Source: Candidatus Thorarchaeota archaeon | GTDB lineage: Archaea; Asgardarchaeota; Thorarchaeia; Thorarchaeales; Thorarchaeaceae | Direction of reading: 5' to 3' | Assembly: GCA_004524445.1 (NCBI GenBank) | Contig: SDNP01000035.1 | Location: forward strand, 1 to 28,134 | Length of the DNA stretch: 28,134 nt | In this document: positions 4,311 to 10,748 of the stretch, piece by piece | How the letters are laid out: each line of letters starts with the position of its first letter | Numbering within the stretch: position 1 is the stretch's first letter | Notes under the pieces: model-generated | Databases searched by the model: none | What the model was told of the DNA's origin: nothing | Seen by the model: the letters and a program-made list of their open reading frames with translations, nothing else | Translations under genes and position numbers: made by a program

Positions 4311-6398
4311 TTACTGACTTTTAGTTAACCGCCTTCTTGCAAACCAGATACCGACCAAGATGAAAGGAATGCATACTACAATGAGCATGACAGGAAGTGT
4401 CGTATAGGGGAATCTGGGGTCTCCACCATTCATGAACTCCTCAATATTCGGGATTCCATCACCATCTGGGTCTTCTGCTGCATCATCCTCGTTCGGGTCA
4501 AGAGAGTAAAGGAGCTCCCAGCTGTCTGGCATTCCATCTTGGTCAGAATCCGAGCTAAACGGGTCTGTTCCTGCAAAGAATTCTTGAACGTTAGTCAAGC
4601 CATCTTCATCATAATCCAACTGTGCATCATCCTTTGTCGGATCCAAATTGTTCATGATTTCCCAGAGATCAGACATGATGTCAGAATCAGAGTCAGTATT
4701 GTGAGGATTCGTACGATTACCATATTCGTAGATGTTAAGCACTCCATCGCCATCAGGGTCCAAGCTCGCATCATCAATCAGGGCGTCTGTTCCATTGACG
4801 ACTTCCCATCCATCAGGAATTCCGTCTGAGTCGGAGTCAGCCTTTTTTGGGGCAGTACCATTTCCATACTCGTTGATGTTCGAGAGATAGTCACCATCAG
4901 GGTCTCGATGGGCATCAGGCAAGCATGGATTCAGCCCCTCTTCATATTCCCATAGGTCGGGCATACCATCCCTGTCGGTGTCCGTGTTATCAGAGGAGGT
5001 GCCGATTATGATTTCGACTGCATCGCTCAATCCATCACCATCTTGGTCCAGGTTGAAAAGCTCGCTATCCAGCCAGAATTGAGTGCTATCCTTTATTCCA
5101 TCATTATCCAGATCCTCATCATACATCGCTTTCAGGTTGAAGCTGACATCGGCCGACTCATTGCCATGAATCACTAACTCATAGAGACCAATCGAGTTCA
5201 GAGAAATATTCGCAATAAGCTCATCCTGAGAATTCTCTTGAACGCTACTGAATGTGAATATCTCCTCCTTTCCTGGGGAATACAGCTTCATTTTCAAACC
5301 CACGCCAGACCAACCGCCATTCAAGATTAATCGGGTAGTGGTTGAAATCGGTAGGTAATAGGAAAGATGAGTAGACGGACGAATATAACCGTAGTACTGG
5401 ATAGTATGAAGTTGCTCATGAGCTCTAGCCATGGTATATGCCATGCTTGCGCCAATAGAGGCTACGGCATCTCTTGCCACTGTATAATTGTAGAGCGGAT
5501 TGTCCCATGTATCCTCTGAACTGTGATAGGCAGTGTCAGAGTCAAAGCCGGATTCAAAGGCAAACAGGACATTCTCGTACCCCTCACTGAGGAATGAGGC
5601 ATGATCAGAACGGCTCCAACCACTGAATTGGTCATTCATGAGGGTTTTCACAAGGTTCCTACCGAAATTCTTACTCATGGCGCGGGATACTTGGGCAAAT
5701 TTCATGCTGTGGTCGTTGTGGACCATCAAGACTCTTTCATCTACAGGAGCATTCTCATCTTCGACAAGAAGCATGTCAATATTCCAGTAGGTAAGAATGT
5801 CAATACCACGAAGTTCGAATATGTTAGCCACCTCTCCACTTCCTACCAAGCCAATCTCTTCTGAGTTCCAAGCACAAAAGTAGATGTCCAAAGGCCATTC
5901 ATATTTTGACATAACGCGGGCAAGTTCAAGGACTGCAGCAACACCGGTTCCATCATCGTTCGCACCTGGCGCACCAGGCACAGAATCATAATGCCCACCA
6001 ACCATAAGAACAGGAGCTCCATCTGGAAGATAGCCGGGCAACCTTCCAACCACTGATTTGTGATTGCCAAGAATCTCAACTTCAATTCTCTCCTTCGAGA
6101 GAGCCTCTAACTGTTCAGATATCCAATTTCGAGCGTGTACGTTTGCTGCGCTGAAGTGGGGCGGGTTTCCGAGCGAGGTTGAACGAGAACCATTCTCAGT
6201 GAGTTTCTGAATAAAGGTGAAGTATTTTGCTTGTGAAACCCCCTGAAAGATAGAACGTGAAATGTCTTGGCCATAAATGCGAACGGGTTTCACAGAGTCG
6301 TCTTGTGGAAGTTCTGGAATAGTAAGACCCGATGACGGGCATACGGGAACAATGAAAATGACAACTACGAGCATGCAGGCATATTGCTTTCTCGGCAT
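4311..6398 (-). CDS. membrane-anchored M28-family zinc aminopeptidase with Ca-binding (TSP3-like) repeats
   Basis: Metal ligands appear intact: GGHYDS, GANDDGTG, NSEEIG, NIDM, SDH and YHSSED. Start moved from 6458 to ATG 6398 (MPRKQYACMLVVVIFIVP, signal-like, with AGGAAG upstream). DxDxDG repeats follow, then a C-terminal TM and RRR. Confidence 0.88.
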   Translation of the reverse strand: MPRKQYACMLVVVIFIVPVCPSSGLTIPELPQDDSVKPVRIYGQDISRSIFQGVSQAKYFTFIQKLTENGSRSTSLGNPPHFSAANVHARNWISEQLEALSKERIEVEILGNHKSVVGRLPGYLPDGAPVLMVGGHYDSVPGAPGANDDGTGVAAVLELARVMSKYEWPLDIYFCAWNSEEIGLVGSGEVANIFELRGIDILTYWNIDMLLVEDENAPVDERVLMVHNDHSMKFAQVSRAMSKNFGRNLVKTLMNDQFSGWSRSDHASFLSEGYENVLFAFESGFDSDTAYHSSEDTWDNPLYNYTVARDAVASIGASMAYTMARAHEQLHTIQYYGYIRPSTHLSYYLPISTTTRLILNGGWSGVGLKMKLYSPGKEEIFTFSSVQENSQDELIANISLNSIGLYELVIHGNESADVSFNLKAMYDEDLDNDGIKDSTQFWLDSELFNLDQDGDGLSDAVEIIIGTSSDNTDTDRDGMPDLWEYEEGLNPCLPDAHRDPDGDYLSNINEYGNGTAPKKADSDSDGIPDGWEVVNGTDALIDDASLDPDGDGVLNIYEYGNRTNPHNTDSDSDIMSDLWEIMNNLDPTKDDAQLDYDEDGLTNVQEFFAGTDPFSSDSDQDGMPDSWELLYSLDPNEDDAAEDPDGDGIPNIEEFMNGGDPRFPYTTLPVMLIVVCIPFILVGIWFARRRLTKSQ
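4407..5114 (-). repeat. acidic DxDxDG calcium-binding repeat array: four 48-aa double units (4407-4982) plus two single motifs
   Basis: Units have the form D(S/T)DxDGxPDxWE...P..DDA..DPDGDG..N..E...GT.P. There are 10 DxDxD-type motifs in total. Confidence 0.85.
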
Positions 6399-6501
6399 AA
6401 TCTTCCTTTTTTCTTGAAAATACATCAAGGTATTGATTAACGCTACTGGTTTTTTCAATGGTTAACAGTAAAAAGGAAGAATTACGTATAGGGGGTTACC
6501 G

Positions 6502-7767
6502 ATGCCACTCAAAGATTTACCAATAGCCTTGGAAATGAAGGATCCAATTCATGGCTACATATCAGTTACAGAAATAGAACGTGACATAATTGACCTTAGA
6601 CTCAGTCAGAGGTTGAGGTACATCCGGTCTCCAGCCGGCGTGAATCTTGTATTCCCTGGAGCAGATACTTCTCTCATGGGGCGGCTCCTCGGTGTGTCTT
6701 TTGTGACTGAGATATTCCTTGAAAATCTAGGCGCAAACATGGAAGAAGTCATAGAATCCCGCCTAGCAGCCATGATTCTTATGCTCGCCTATGGTCCCTG
6801 GCCAAATGTGATGGAGGAGTATTTCACTGTCAGGGGGATGAGTCGAAAGAACATTGCCCAATTGATTATCAAAAATTCGCCTGTTACAGATATCATCAGA
6901 GATAGTAGCTTGTCCGTTAATGAAGCAACAGAAATGATTGAGAAAGGTGTGAAAGTCAAGGGGTTAACACTCGACTTGGTCAGGACACCCATCAATCCAG
7001 AGTTGGTAGATAATCTTGAACGCGACTCCTATTTCGCGGGCGTTGAATACGCTCAACTTGAATTTCGTAAGCTATTCAGTTCCACTCGGATTGCCAAGAA
7101 TAGAATGGCCTTTGACCGCTCTGCGATATTCACTCTTGATTCCTATCTCTCCGCTGCAGCCAACATGTTTGATGCCGTCTATTATCACAAAACGGTCAGA
7201 GCGGCTGAACTGATGTTACTTAGAATTCTAGATGAGGCAGGCTCAAACATCATGCCATCGCCAGAGGCGAATCTAGACGAATATCTCATTACTGACGATA
7301 TAACTTTCCATGACACGCTATTACAAGCTGGTCCAGGCGACTCAGAAGAGATGAAAAATGCAAAGTCGCTCTTTGAAGACTATAGGAAGAGATACCTCAT
7401 TAAGACAGTGACTTCAAGAGGCATAGCCAATGAGAGCTTCTTGAAAAAATTGTCAACTCCTGATGGACTGTACTCGGTCGAGCGGGAAATAGCGGAAGAA
7501 GCAGATATTGACCCGAATAACGTCTGGGTGGATTATCCGGATAGACTCTCAGTCAGCTATTTTCCTGGCAAGCATCCTCTGGATCAGCTTGCTCTATATG
7601 AGAGGGGTTCGAGAGGCTATGAGTTTTGGAGAGTCGAAGAGATAAGCGGCATTGCCAGAAGCTTTGGAAGAAAACTCAAAACAATACGTGTGTATACAAC
7701 CCGAGGCTATCGTTCCAAAGTACGAAGGCCTGCAGAGAAGCTCTTAGAGAGCATTGATACAGTTTAA
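6502..7767 (+). CDS. HD-superfamily dNTP triphosphohydrolase (SAMHD1/YdhJ-like) homolog, catalytically degenerate
   Basis: KDPIHGYI, QRLRYI, VFPGA, LERDSYFAGV and VYYHKTVRAAELML identify the family. HxRxEH and LHDxGHxPxSH are replaced by TSLMGR and ILMLAYGPWPN. Confidence 0.85.
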   Translation: MPLKDLPIALEMKDPIHGYISVTEIERDIIDLRLSQRLRYIRSPAGVNLVFPGADTSLMGRLLGVSFVTEIFLENLGANMEEVIESRLAAMILMLAYGPWPNVMEEYFTVRGMSRKNIAQLIIKNSPVTDIIRDSSLSVNEATEMIEKGVKVKGLTLDLVRTPINPELVDNLERDSYFAGVEYAQLEFRKLFSSTRIAKNRMAFDRSAIFTLDSYLSAAANMFDAVYYHKTVRAAELMLLRILDEAGSNIMPSPEANLDEYLITDDITFHDTLLQAGPGDSEEMKNAKSLFEDYRKRYLIKTVTSRGIANESFLKKLSTPDGLYSVEREIAEEADIDPNNVWVDYPDRLSVSYFPGKHPLDQLALYERGSRGYEFWRVEEISGIARSFGRKLKTIRVYTTRGYRSKVRRPAEKLLESIDTV

Positions 7768-7836: not shown

Positions 7837-8325
7837 ATGACAGAACAGCAAGACAAGAGTCCTGTTGGCGATATGATGAAAGACCCAAATATTGGTCTAA
7901 TTGGAACCGGTGCATTGGTGTGGATTCTGAGCTTCTATGTACCATTTATTGGACCACTTCTTTCAACTGGTGGGTTCGCTCTCGTATGTTTGGCATCCGC
8001 AGTCACTGCTTTGAAGCGTCCCATTGACAAGGCAATGGTTGGCTTGATTATGGGTGCCATTATCCAAATTGTTGGAGGCTATCTAGCTGGGGTCTTCCTA
8101 ATTGGCTGGATTCTCTCGCCAATTCTGACAGTAGTGGGTGGAGTCATGATTATTTTCTTTTCAATTCCTCTCGTAGTTCAGACTGGAAAAATTCCATTCG
8201 TAGAGGAATTTCAAGAGGCAATCAAAAAGCAGGCCAAAGAAGACGAGGAGCCATCTGAGGAAACAACAGACACAACAGACGAAGCAGCACAAGGACAAGA
8301 AGAATTTAGTGACGAAGGATATTAG
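7837..8325 (+). CDS. hypothetical membrane protein (about 4 TM, internal 2-TM duplication, acidic C-terminal tail)
   Basis: Hydrophobic pairs 'YVPFIGPLLSTGG' and 'GVFLIGWILSPILTVVGG' look like a repeat. The tail is E/D/T-rich. Confidence 0.75.
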   Translation: MTEQQDKSPVGDMMKDPNIGLIGTGALVWILSFYVPFIGPLLSTGGFALVCLASAVTALKRPIDKAMVGLIMGAIIQIVGGYLAGVFLIGWILSPILTVVGGVMIIFFSIPLVVQTGKIPFVEEFQEAIKKQAKEDEEPSEETTDTTDEAAQGQEEFSDEGY

Positions 8326-8471: not shown

Positions 8472-10748
8472 GTGTTCTCTTGTAGTAAATGTGGTCAACC
8501 AGTTTATATCAAAAATGCAGAGCTTGAGGACCATATCCTCCGAATGGAAGTACAATGCTTGAATGGCCATAAGAGCATTAGGAGAATGGCTGAGCATCAA
8601 GCTGAAGAAATGGTTGAGGAAATCTTCGACAAACTGTTTGTATGCACCGAGTGCGGCTCTCTTATGAGTCAAGTTGACACTGGAGTTGATGACGAACGGG
8701 CTGAAAGCACATTTCTTTGTCCAATTCATGGAATCGAACGACGCGAATTCCCTGCGAAATTTCTCGCATCGATTTCACTTCTAAGTGCTGACATAGACAC
8801 CTCTCAATCAATAATTGATTCATTCAGATGTTCTCAATGTGGACATGTATATGTGATTAGAGAGATCGAGAAGAGAGATGGTCTATTCGAACTTGATGTT
8901 CGTTGCCCAAACGGACACGACTCAACCCGCTATATCTCTGAAGATATCGAGGAGAGATTGCTCACTAAGGTATTGCAGAGGCTGCTGCATTGTGATAGAT
9001 GTGGACTGCCAGGGACAATAGTGGAACTAGAAGAACGCAGAAAATCCATTCGAGCGCATGTATCATGCCCAACGCATGGAGTTTCAAAAAAGGACATTCC
9101 TAAAGATTTGGTTAAAGCAGTGAGGAAGGCTGAGGACGAGATTCCTGAAGACGCAGTCGTAAGAGCCATGCTAAATTCAACTCGATGCCAAATACCCTTG
9201 GCAATCCGAGAGATTGAGGATGACAAGTCAGGCTACAAGTTCAAATGTGTATGCCCAGGGCAAGGTGATGTCGCTGACATGGTACAACCTGTTCAATGGA
9301 ACGATTCCAATTCAGCACTCATTACAGAGGCTCTGCTGACATGCAGCGAATGTGGGCTATTCACACAGATTCGGGACTTGAAGGAAAAGAGAAATGAGAT
9401 CGAGTTTCGTGTCGTATGTCCAGTTCATGGCGTGTTGGAGCGAAAGGTTCCCAAAGAGGTCTTTTCAATCGTTTTAGATAAGGAGCAATCAATTGATAGA
9501 ATACCCTCTATTGTCAGAAGCTTGACCTGTCTTGCATGCAATAATCCACTTCATTTGAGAGATGTCCAAGAAAAACATGGGCTCATAGAATTTGATATGG
9601 ATGATAAAAAAGGTCACAGAACACAGAGATTCTTTACACCCGATATGGACCAAGATGCACTGGTGAGTATCTACAAAAATCTCTATCAGTGTCCCGAGTG
9701 CTATGAGCAGCTAGACCTGGTCTATTTGGATCCTCAGGATAGTAAGACGAGAGTTGTGCGTTTATGCCCATTGCATGGGAAATTTGTTCTGGATGTTCCT
9801 CATAACCATGCTGAAGCCCTAAAACTTGCCCACGAAGAGATAGAATTGGATAAATTGACACCCCCAGAGGAAGTTCCAACCCTAGATCAAGAGAGAGAAA
9901 TAGAACCGGAAATAGAGGTTTCCAGCCCACGAGGGAAAAATGTCAAAGTACTACGAGGCTGTGAAATAGTGGGGGGGAAGTTCGACTATAAGGTGAAAGT
10001 TCTGAATGACTCTGATTACGTCATCACAAATGTCACTGTAAGCATTGTTGCGTATCCTGAAGATTGCATGGACCTGGGTGGTGAGAATGTCAAAACCATT
10101 TCAAGGATTGAGGTCGGGGGCTTTAGAAGTCCGCAATTCACATTCTATCCCACTAAAGACTGCGTTCAGGGGAAAGTTGTCGCCACCGTTTCGTATATTG
10201 ATTTCAGAGATAGATTGCATACTGTTCAGGTTGAACCTTATCTTATCCGCTCTGTGTGTGATATGCTAAAGCCCACGGAGGCAAGTAGCAAAGAATTCGA
10301 CCTCGTGCTCAATGGCCTAACAAAGACAGACCAGGAACAATTGCTTGAGTGGAATGCCCGAGTGTTGTTTACAAAAGCGGAGAAACTGCTTCCGACGAAG
10401 AATTTCCATATTATTGACACGGAGGAGCATCTTGTCAGCAATCAGTTCATTGGCACGATTAGAGGATATGCAAAAGGGAAGTACACAGAAAAGAGAGTGG
10501 CAGTAGTTATGCTCATATCTGGACCAGAGATGGGCAGGCATGCAACTGTTAAACTTGAAGCATTGGGAGACGATATTGCTATGTTGCCCACCACAATCGA
10601 TGAGCTCGCTGAGACCATGGATTCCTGGATCTGTCTTAGGTGTGGTGCGCCCCTTGAGCCTGAGGAGGTCAAGCATCTTGGCAAGAGAACGCCGATAAGA
10701 TGTCGGTATTGCTCACATACATTGACAATGGGCCTCTATATGATGTAG
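8472..10748 (+). CDS. multi-zinc-ribbon repeat protein with C-terminal coatomer/adaptin appendage-like domain and terminal C4 zinc ribbon
   Basis: Eight CxxC-x21-C-x2/3-H units. The C-terminal beta-rich region followed by 'DMLKPTEASSKEF' resembles appendage domains. Ends with CLRC...CRYC. GTG start with GAGGT upstream. Confidence 0.8.
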   Translation: MFSCSKCGQPVYIKNAELEDHILRMEVQCLNGHKSIRRMAEHQAEEMVEEIFDKLFVCTECGSLMSQVDTGVDDERAESTFLCPIHGIERREFPAKFLASISLLSADIDTSQSIIDSFRCSQCGHVYVIREIEKRDGLFELDVRCPNGHDSTRYISEDIEERLLTKVLQRLLHCDRCGLPGTIVELEERRKSIRAHVSCPTHGVSKKDIPKDLVKAVRKAEDEIPEDAVVRAMLNSTRCQIPLAIREIEDDKSGYKFKCVCPGQGDVADMVQPVQWNDSNSALITEALLTCSECGLFTQIRDLKEKRNEIEFRVVCPVHGVLERKVPKEVFSIVLDKEQSIDRIPSIVRSLTCLACNNPLHLRDVQEKHGLIEFDMDDKKGHRTQRFFTPDMDQDALVSIYKNLYQCPECYEQLDLVYLDPQDSKTRVVRLCPLHGKFVLDVPHNHAEALKLAHEEIELDKLTPPEEVPTLDQEREIEPEIEVSSPRGKNVKVLRGCEIVGGKFDYKVKVLNDSDYVITNVTVSIVAYPEDCMDLGGENVKTISRIEVGGFRSPQFTFYPTKDCVQGKVVATVSYIDFRDRLHTVQVEPYLIRSVCDMLKPTEASSKEFDLVLNGLTKTDQEQLLEWNARVLFTKAEKLLPTKNFHIIDTEEHLVSNQFIGTIRGYAKGKYTEKRVAVVMLISGPEMGRHATVKLEALGDDIAMLPTTIDELAETMDSWICLRCGAPLEPEEVKHLGKRTPIRCRYCSHTLTMGLYMM
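8481..9779 (+). repeat. eight ~57-aa zinc-ribbon repeats alternating CxxGH and CPxHG endings (4 double units)
   Basis: CSKC/CLNGH, CTEC/CPIHG, CSQC/CPNGH, CDRC/CPTHG, STRC/CPGQG, CSEC/CPVHG, CLAC/DKKGH, CPEC/CPLHG. Confidence 0.85.

Follow-up and report, generated by a model that had tools for sequence, protein, structure and literature searches.

A Thorarchaeal paralogue of SAMHD1/EF1143-type dNTPases, predicted to be catalytically inactive, retains the residues of the regulatory nucleotide site

Introduction

SAMHD1-type enzymes have been studied intensively as dNTPases in which allosteric nucleotide binding leads to tetramer assembly and catalysis. In SAMHD1 the HD motif comprises H167, H206, D207 and D311, and the variants H206R/D207N and D311A are inactive; allosteric site 1 was defined by mutations at D137, Q142, R145 and R451 (PMC7045340). 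For EF1143 of Enterococcus faecalis the allosteric dGTP contacts are K14, N36, Q41, R44, F64, R326 and K330 (PMC3190883). By sequence, the solved structures closest to the protein described here are those of EF1143 (2o6i, 3irh, 4lrl) and Aquifex aeolicus O67745 (2hek), both tetrameric prokaryotic dNTPases whose fold it shares over its full length; a fungal enzyme, RiSAMHD1 (9mr6), and human SAMHD1 (4bzb, 7ujn) are further structural references.

Prozyme-type pseudoenzymes are dead paralogues which activate a catalytic partner within a hetero-oligomer, the AdoMetDC prozyme of trypanosomatids being an example. The full-text literature searched (one collection) yielded no description of a naturally inactive paralogue within the SAMHD1 family. 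Here we describe a candidate for such a protein that is encoded on a contig of a Candidatus Thorarchaeota archaeon (GenBank assembly GCA_004524445.1, contig SDNP01000035.1, positions 1 to 28,134 of the forward strand). This whole stretch of 28,134 nucleotides is referred to as the window, and all coordinates are positions within it unless a locus in another genome is named.

Results

The gene under study was delimited by the list of open reading frames and characterized by Pfam, PDB and AlphaFold2/Foldseek matches.

6502..7767, plus strand: pseudo-dNTPase gene (product P0001), 421 amino acids, ATG start

As stated by the first-pass annotation of this DNA, the 421-residue frame is free of frameshifts. 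No rival long frame is present in the region. Homology of P0001 to SAMHD1/EF1143-type HD-domain dNTPases extends over its whole length. Pfam recognized PF19276 (HD_assoc_2, a C-terminal "HD associated region") at 8.9e-15 and gave no match to the HD domain PF01966; a scan against NCBIfam assigned no family. A phmmer search of the PDB returned 2hek (1.6e-24) and EF1143 (2o6i; 8e-18), together with BT4208 (2q14), the fungal SAMHD1 (9mr6) and human SAMHD1 (about 1e-6). With a profile made from the orthologues the values were 6e-60 for 2hek and 1.9e-45 for EF1143, the leading E-values against solved structures being 6e-60, 1e-48 and 2e-45 and that of SAMHD1 about 1e-33. The AlphaFold2 model, computed from 110 aligned homologues, has a mean pLDDT of 94.9 and a pTM of 0.92, and Foldseek aligned it along the whole chain with TM scores of 0.73-0.78 to RiSAMHD1 (9mr6, the top match), 2hek, EF1143 (4lrl) and human SAMHD1; over the EF1143 and Aquifex structures the range is 0.73-0.83. 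Sequence matches and model together therefore identify P0001 as a predicted well-folded, full-length member of the SAMHD1/EF1143 structural family, with an HD lobe and a C-terminal HD_assoc_2 lobe. It differs from human SAMHD1 and RiSAMHD1, to which it is 16-19% identical, in lacking the SAM domain and the HD motif.

Residues were mapped through HMMER alignments of P0001 to solved structures and carry SAMHD1 numbering where they refer to equivalents. Column by column, 122 full-length orthologue clusters of the P0001 clade were compared with 128 active homologues in an alignment of all fetched proteins. Three blocks were placed by these alignments.

6649..6696, plus strand: first-histidine block, residues 50-65; H162 replaced by T56, R164 by L58 and H167 by R61, with V50 and F51 retained
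6772..6807, plus strand: HD block, residues 91-102; H206 replaced by L93, D207 by M94, H210 by Y97 and H215 by N102 (Asn in 122/122 clusters)
6988..7026, plus strand: DxDxxDY block, residues 163-175; D309 replaced by N165 (122/122), D311 by E167 (117/122), K312 by L168 and Y315 by N171

At the positions of the H...HD...D metal motif (H167, H206, D207 and D311) P0001 reads R61, L93, M94 and E167. Three of the 122 clusters keep H167, and none keeps H206, D207 or D311. Likewise, the substrate contacts Q149, R164, H210, H215, Y315 and R366 are each kept in none of the 122 clusters; R366, which contacts the γ-phosphate of the substrate and had not been listed in the first-pass annotation, corresponds to A219. 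Retained are the equivalent of Y374 and, within the DxDxxDY block of P0001, D170 (D314), R174 and D175 (D319). Active homologues keep each of the same metal and substrate positions in at least 105 of 128 sequences. In terms of EF1143, neither the metal ligands (H66, H110, D111, D183) nor the substrate contacts Q48 and R63 nor the proposed catalytic residues have a counterpart in P0001. Because the replacements recur in 122 of 122 full-length orthologue clusters, the pattern is not due to chance, and the metal-dependent chemistry of the family is excluded, every metal ligand and phosphate contact having been lost. Judged by these alignments, proteins of the clade almost certainly do not hydrolyse dNTPs, and P0001 itself is very probably not a dNTPase.

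Most replacements had been read correctly by eye. Changes proposed for Q149 (to S), R164 (to L), H167 (to R), H210 (to Y) and H215 (to N) reappeared in the HMMER alignment as S43, L58, R61, Y97 and N102, and the motif given as NPELVDN in place of DxDxxDY is N165-P-E167-L-V-D170-N171 opposite D309-x-D311-x-x-D314-Y315. The HD dyad, given as ML, had to be moved by one residue, the alignment placing L93-M94 (LM) there; neither reading contains His or Asp. Loss of K116 was considered as a further change of the lineage and rejected: its equivalent is L10, but an active paralogue of the same genome (contig C33, see below) also has Leu at this position.

According to the column counts the old active site is constrained and not in free drift, having been refilled with a largely fixed set of residues (R61, N102, N165, E167, L168 and P44). 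In the P0001 clade N102 and N165 are present in 122 of 122 clusters, L168 in 121 and E167 in 117; L58 follows with 116/122 and R61 with 110/122, and P44 stands in place of L150 in all 122. A basic residue (R or K) at position 61 is absent from three of the five sequences that lack E167 (examples are L with I and H with T) as compared with three of the 117 that have it. This joint loss of the residues at 61 and 167 suggests that R61 and E167 contact each other where two metal ligands once met. In total, 46 residues are invariant in the clade and different in active homologues, many of them outside the old pockets. Among them is a β-hairpin.

7600..7629, plus strand: ERGSRGYEFW β-hairpin, residues 367-376; clade-specific invariant residues, with AlphaFold2 strands at 363-369 and 372-377

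The hairpin does not vary within the clade, and active homologues either lack it or differ there; it is a candidate new interaction surface.

Three further segments carry residues equivalent to those of the regulatory nucleotide sites.

6592..6618, plus strand: DLRLSQRLR, residues 31-39; D31, Q36 and R39 align with D137, Q142 and R145 of SAMHD1 and with N36, Q41 and R44 of EF1143
7180..7191, plus strand: YYHK, residues 227-230; Y227, H229 and K230 are the retained equivalents of Y374, H376 and K377, with A219 (R366) upstream
7390..7404, plus strand: RYLIK, residues 297-301; R297 and K301 correspond to R451 and K455 in the SAMHD1 alignment and to R326 and K330 of EF1143

The equivalents of D31, Q36 and R39 make up the half of the guanine-nucleotide regulatory site that reads the base (roles from PMC3190883 and PMC7045340), and those of R297 and K301 the half contributed by the neighbouring subunit, the latter being an addition to the residues recognized earlier. 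Retention of D137, Q142 and R145, as originally claimed, was confirmed by alignment for P0001 and holds in 119, 122 and 122 of the 122 clusters; R451 and K455 are each found in all 122. The claims for V156/F157 and H376/K377 also stood, the aligned residues being V50/F51 and H229/K230. Compared with EF1143, P0001 retains Q41, R44, R326 and K330 of the dGTP site and has a SAMHD1-like Asp at the position of N36. Compared with SAMHD1, it has all five residues of site 1 (D137, Q142, R145, R451 and K455) and, of site 2, V156/F157, R333 (R/K190) and H376/K377; R352, K354 and N358 of site 2 have no conserved counterpart, a trait shared with the archaeal active paralogues. An inter-subunit guanine-nucleotide regulatory site is thus predicted at the sequence level. 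Since D137, Q142, R145, R451 and K455 are near-invariant in the 128 active homologues too, their retention fits a kept pocket without proving one, and contacts needed for folding or oligomer formation could alone explain it.

Family f1 is the Thorarchaeia family that includes the window's genome. At a threshold of E <= 1e-70, 71 of its 85 further genomes have an orthologue of the gene, and one more has a fragment at a contig end; all 16 genera are represented. Elsewhere in the phylum (Asgard), 314 genomes spread over 32 families gave none. The 13 f1 genomes in which no copy was detected are 52-93% complete, and because three of them reach 92-93% the gene may be dispensable. In G024 (C4:160521-161775) and G050 (C16:334-1694) the orthologue consists of two adjoining pieces in different frames, which could reflect a frameshift, local loss or an assembly error. 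G023 has two copies on separate contigs.

In a search of 5.8 billion proteins that gave 301 matches, the 120 listed were 57-90% identical, PF19276 was the sole domain in all of them, and their named sources were nearly all Thorarchaeota. An exhaustive search of 1.8 billion representatives added one full-length 50%-identity cluster, scores falling from 471 to about 190 bits, where identity is about 30%.

The sister family f2, represented by a single genome, has a copy of 413 amino acids (P0272; 26% identical to P0001) which adjoins the POR alpha/beta genes and lies near DUF2070, as in f1. This copy is dead by its motifs as well, with HD changed to SE, D311 to N, R164 to Q, R366 to A and L150 to P; it retains the equivalents of H167 and of D137, Q142, R145 and R451 and has lost H376/K377. 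The dead sequences all grouped together in a quick maximum-likelihood tree (85 sequences), as a single clade with an SH-aLRT of 99; its stem is long, and it branches from within the archaeal active homologues, the C33-type paralogue among them. The single clade, the common gene order and the common derived residues point to one ancient inactivation before the f1/f2 split; long-branch attraction may have influenced the tree. In the sister-family genome (G001, L028:5218-9460) the copy and the end of a gene for a 394-aa Big_7 (Ig-like) protein overlap by 11 nt; the latter gene follows DUF2070 on the same strand, which suggests a transcription unit of DUF2070, the Ig-domain protein and the dead HD protein in this family; the arrangement in f1 is different.

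The first-pass annotation had favoured a maintained pseudoenzyme over a decaying pseudogene and had named conservation of the dead site, a dN/dS below 1 and the existence of an active paralogue elsewhere as checks, with intact HD motifs in close orthologues as a result that would speak against it. The dead site is conserved in every orthologue examined, and none of these has an intact HD motif. dN/dS was computed from codon alignments taken from the genomes; all pairs were tried, and dS was saturated except in four pairs for the P0001 gene and two for the active gene. The four values of 0.077 (G000-G076), 0.056, 0.044 and 0.12 are all far below 1 and similar to those of the active paralogue in the same genome pairs (0.055 and 0.084). 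For P0001 orthologues, identity is 49-66% over the family, 90% inside the genus and 26% with the sister family; the active paralogue reaches 65-81%, 94% and 50%, respectively. As identities are lower in every comparison, the P0001 gene evolves faster at the protein level.

Two intact relatives with H..HD..D motifs are encoded elsewhere in the window's genome (2.79 Mb, 64 contigs, 90% complete), one of 452 amino acids on contig C33 and one of 501 amino acids on contig C24, both with PF01966 and PF19276. Their genes span L002:1474-2832 on the minus strand (C33) and L003:1324-2829 on the plus strand (C24). Within the class, 85 of 87 genomes encode a C33-type paralogue. The two proteins have the two-lobe architecture of P0001 including PF19276, are 29-30% identical to it and carry matching residues at the regulatory site; unlike P0001 they score for PF01966 and have the H..HD..D motif and all substrate residues, and the C33 type evolves more slowly. 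The P0001 gene is unlinked to either, all three lying on separate contigs. Both active paralogues gave weak PADLOC matches to dGTPase (about 1e-6 to 1e-5). A PADLOC scan of P0001 matched no defence model, and its neighbours do not form a defence island, so that the features of an anti-phage dGTPase were not found.

The surroundings of the gene were compared at 14 loci (13 of f1 plus the sister family) with Pfam scans of the neighbours. Gene order is conserved across f1 and includes 2-oxoacid:ferredoxin oxidoreductase (POR alpha/beta), an M28 peptidase, a membrane protein, a zinc-ribbon protein, a flavoprotein, DUF2070, PadR and ABC transporters. No genes of nucleotide or DNA metabolism, DNA repair or replication, or defence were among the neighbours at these loci. 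An operon reading was rejected in favour of synteny because the neighbours are unrelated to nucleotides, DNA or defence, and since they are housekeeping genes the context lends no functional support. Two genes follow on the same strand.

7837..8325, plus strand: membrane protein, 162 amino acids, predicted multi-pass with an acidic C-terminal tail, no Pfam family
8472..10748, plus strand: zinc-ribbon repeat protein, 758 amino acids, about seven modules (CxxC ... CPxHG) and a C-terminal domain of about 280 amino acids

The membrane protein gene lies directly downstream in six of the 13 f1 loci, and it is doubtful whether it belongs to the same unit as the pseudo-dNTPase gene. The zinc-ribbon protein gene adjoins the P0001 gene in 10 of 13 f1 loci, which probably reflects conserved gene order and not a functional link. 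As an obligate partner the protein was rejected: its gene is missing beside the P0001 gene at three of 13 loci and, in the sister family, is separated from it by some 40 kb. With the window's protein as query it was not found in G011. Many Thorarchaeota proteins contain its C-terminal domain, G003 by itself giving eight matches; the zinc-ribbon protein has no Pfam match above cut-off, its Atlas clusters are confined to Thorarchaeota, and weak Atlas leads (scores <0.8) point to adaptin-appendage-like domains. On the opposite side of the P0001 gene, positions 4311-6458 (minus strand) encode a secreted M28 peptidase fused to a long series of calcium-binding repeats of the bacterial TSP3 type, with a transmembrane helix at the C-terminus; the number of M28 peptidase copies beside the P0001 orthologue varies from 0 to 3 among related genomes.

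Discussion

P0001 combines the loss of catalytic residues with a dN/dS of 0.04-0.12, a predicted fold of high confidence (pLDDT 94.9) and presence in 16 genera, as a pseudoenzyme would. The original proposal of a maintained pseudoenzyme is thus borne out by the conserved dead site, by dN/dS and by the active paralogues elsewhere in the genome. That the gene is instead a pseudogene in decay, or an accident specific to the lineage of the window's genome, has next to no probability: the missing catalytic motifs and the matches split over two frames in G024 and G050 could be read in this way, but more than 65 genomes have an intact frame under the purifying selection reported above, and the same substitutions recur across 16 genera in a protein with a confidently predicted fold. 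Distribution, dN/dS and recurrent substitutions refute this reading.

Taking into account the alignments and the distribution of the gene, we consider it on balance probable that P0001 is a non-catalytic regulatory paralogue, a maintained pseudoenzyme that acts as a sensor or regulatory subunit by nucleotide-dependent oligomerisation. Such a protein would have arisen by duplication of an archaeal SAMHD1/EF1143-type dNTP triphosphohydrolase before the two Thorarchaeia families split. It would then have lost the metal centre and the contacts to the substrate phosphates, and with them metal-dependent dNTP hydrolysis, and would have kept its complete fold together with the two halves of the guanine-nucleotide pocket between subunits. 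GTP, dGTP or another nucleotide may bind at the subunit interfaces and drive oligomerisation without catalysis, and the resulting homo-oligomer, or a mixed oligomer with an active paralogue, might tune dNTP breakdown. Retained nucleotide-dependent assembly appears to be the best explanation because both halves of the pocket were kept while adjacent catalytic positions changed. It is tempting to speculate that P0001 is a prozyme-like subunit which co-assembles with an active Thorarchaeal dNTPase via the inter-subunit nucleotide sites, such that the activity of mixed tetramers depends on the proportions of dead and live subunits and on GTP/dGTP; we put this forward tentatively, as a possibility that is rather unlikely in this specific form.

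The first-pass annotation had proposed three roles, those of a sensor, a nucleic-acid scaffold or a partner in a hetero-oligomer. Other functions of a maintained, inactive protein have to be weighed against regulatory oligomerisation. The retained guanine-reading residues would also serve a role in nucleic-acid binding that is independent of dNTPase activity and unlinked to dNTP pools, in which the regulatory pocket and the interfaces hold single-stranded nucleic acid; SAMHD1, which binds ssDNA and ssRNA and acts in DNA-end resection, offers a parallel. According to PMC7854603, the allosteric sites of SAMHD1 can take oligonucleotides instead of GTP/dNTP, and SAMHD1-DNA complexes (8d94, 8d9j) are among the Foldseek matches of P0001. 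However, P0001 is acidic (pI 5.4, net charge -8), which argues mildly against a general binder, the clade (median pI 5.5, net charge -9) is no more basic than active homologues, and the neighbourhood is devoid of DNA-repair and replication genes. We regard this role as unlikely. A similarly low probability is assigned to a purely structural scaffold that binds no nucleotide and whose new, clade-specific surfaces, such as the hairpin at 367-376, engage an unrelated partner. The 46 clade-specific invariant residues, many of which lie away from the old pockets, are compatible with it, and the regulatory residues, being invariant throughout the family, are unspecific as evidence for ligand binding. 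Yet all five base- and phosphate-reading positions were retained (119-122 of 122 clusters) while their catalytic neighbours changed, which goes beyond the usual maintenance of a fold.

The strong conservation of the replacement residues (N102 and N165 in 122/122 clusters, E167 in 117, R61 in 110) shows the old pocket to be constrained and might be taken as a sign that P0001 is still an enzyme, one whose remodelled pocket (R61, N102, N165, E167, D170, D175 and Y227) supports a metal-independent or differently liganded reaction. We consider this quite improbable. None of the four metal ligands and none of the phosphate-binding residues remains, and E167 and R61 give way to hydrophobic or other residues in some orthologues, a change that would be incompatible with an essential catalytic pair. 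HD-superfamily chemistry without the metal site was not found in the literature searched, among which the superfamily review PMC8177086 was listed.

The AdoMetDC prozyme resembles the regulatory paralogue proposed here in being a dead paralogue of an oligomeric enzyme that is held under purifying selection beside an active copy. It belongs to a different enzyme family and forms a hetero-oligomer, which for P0001 is a hypothesis.

Public records name proteins of the P0001 clade "HD superfamily phosphohydrolase" or "hypothetical protein", an annotation that is corrected by our analysis. P0001 represents a natural copy of a SAMHD1-type protein from which catalysis appears to have been removed and in which the predicted regulatory pocket is kept; as such it may serve as a tool to separate allostery and oligomerisation from chemistry. 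Mixed tetramers of the prozyme-like kind, if they exist, would constitute a mode of dNTP-pool control undescribed for SAMHD1-type enzymes, in the archaeal lineage nearest to eukaryotes. As a candidate regulator, P0001 may add a new level to the control of dNTP pools in Asgard archaea.
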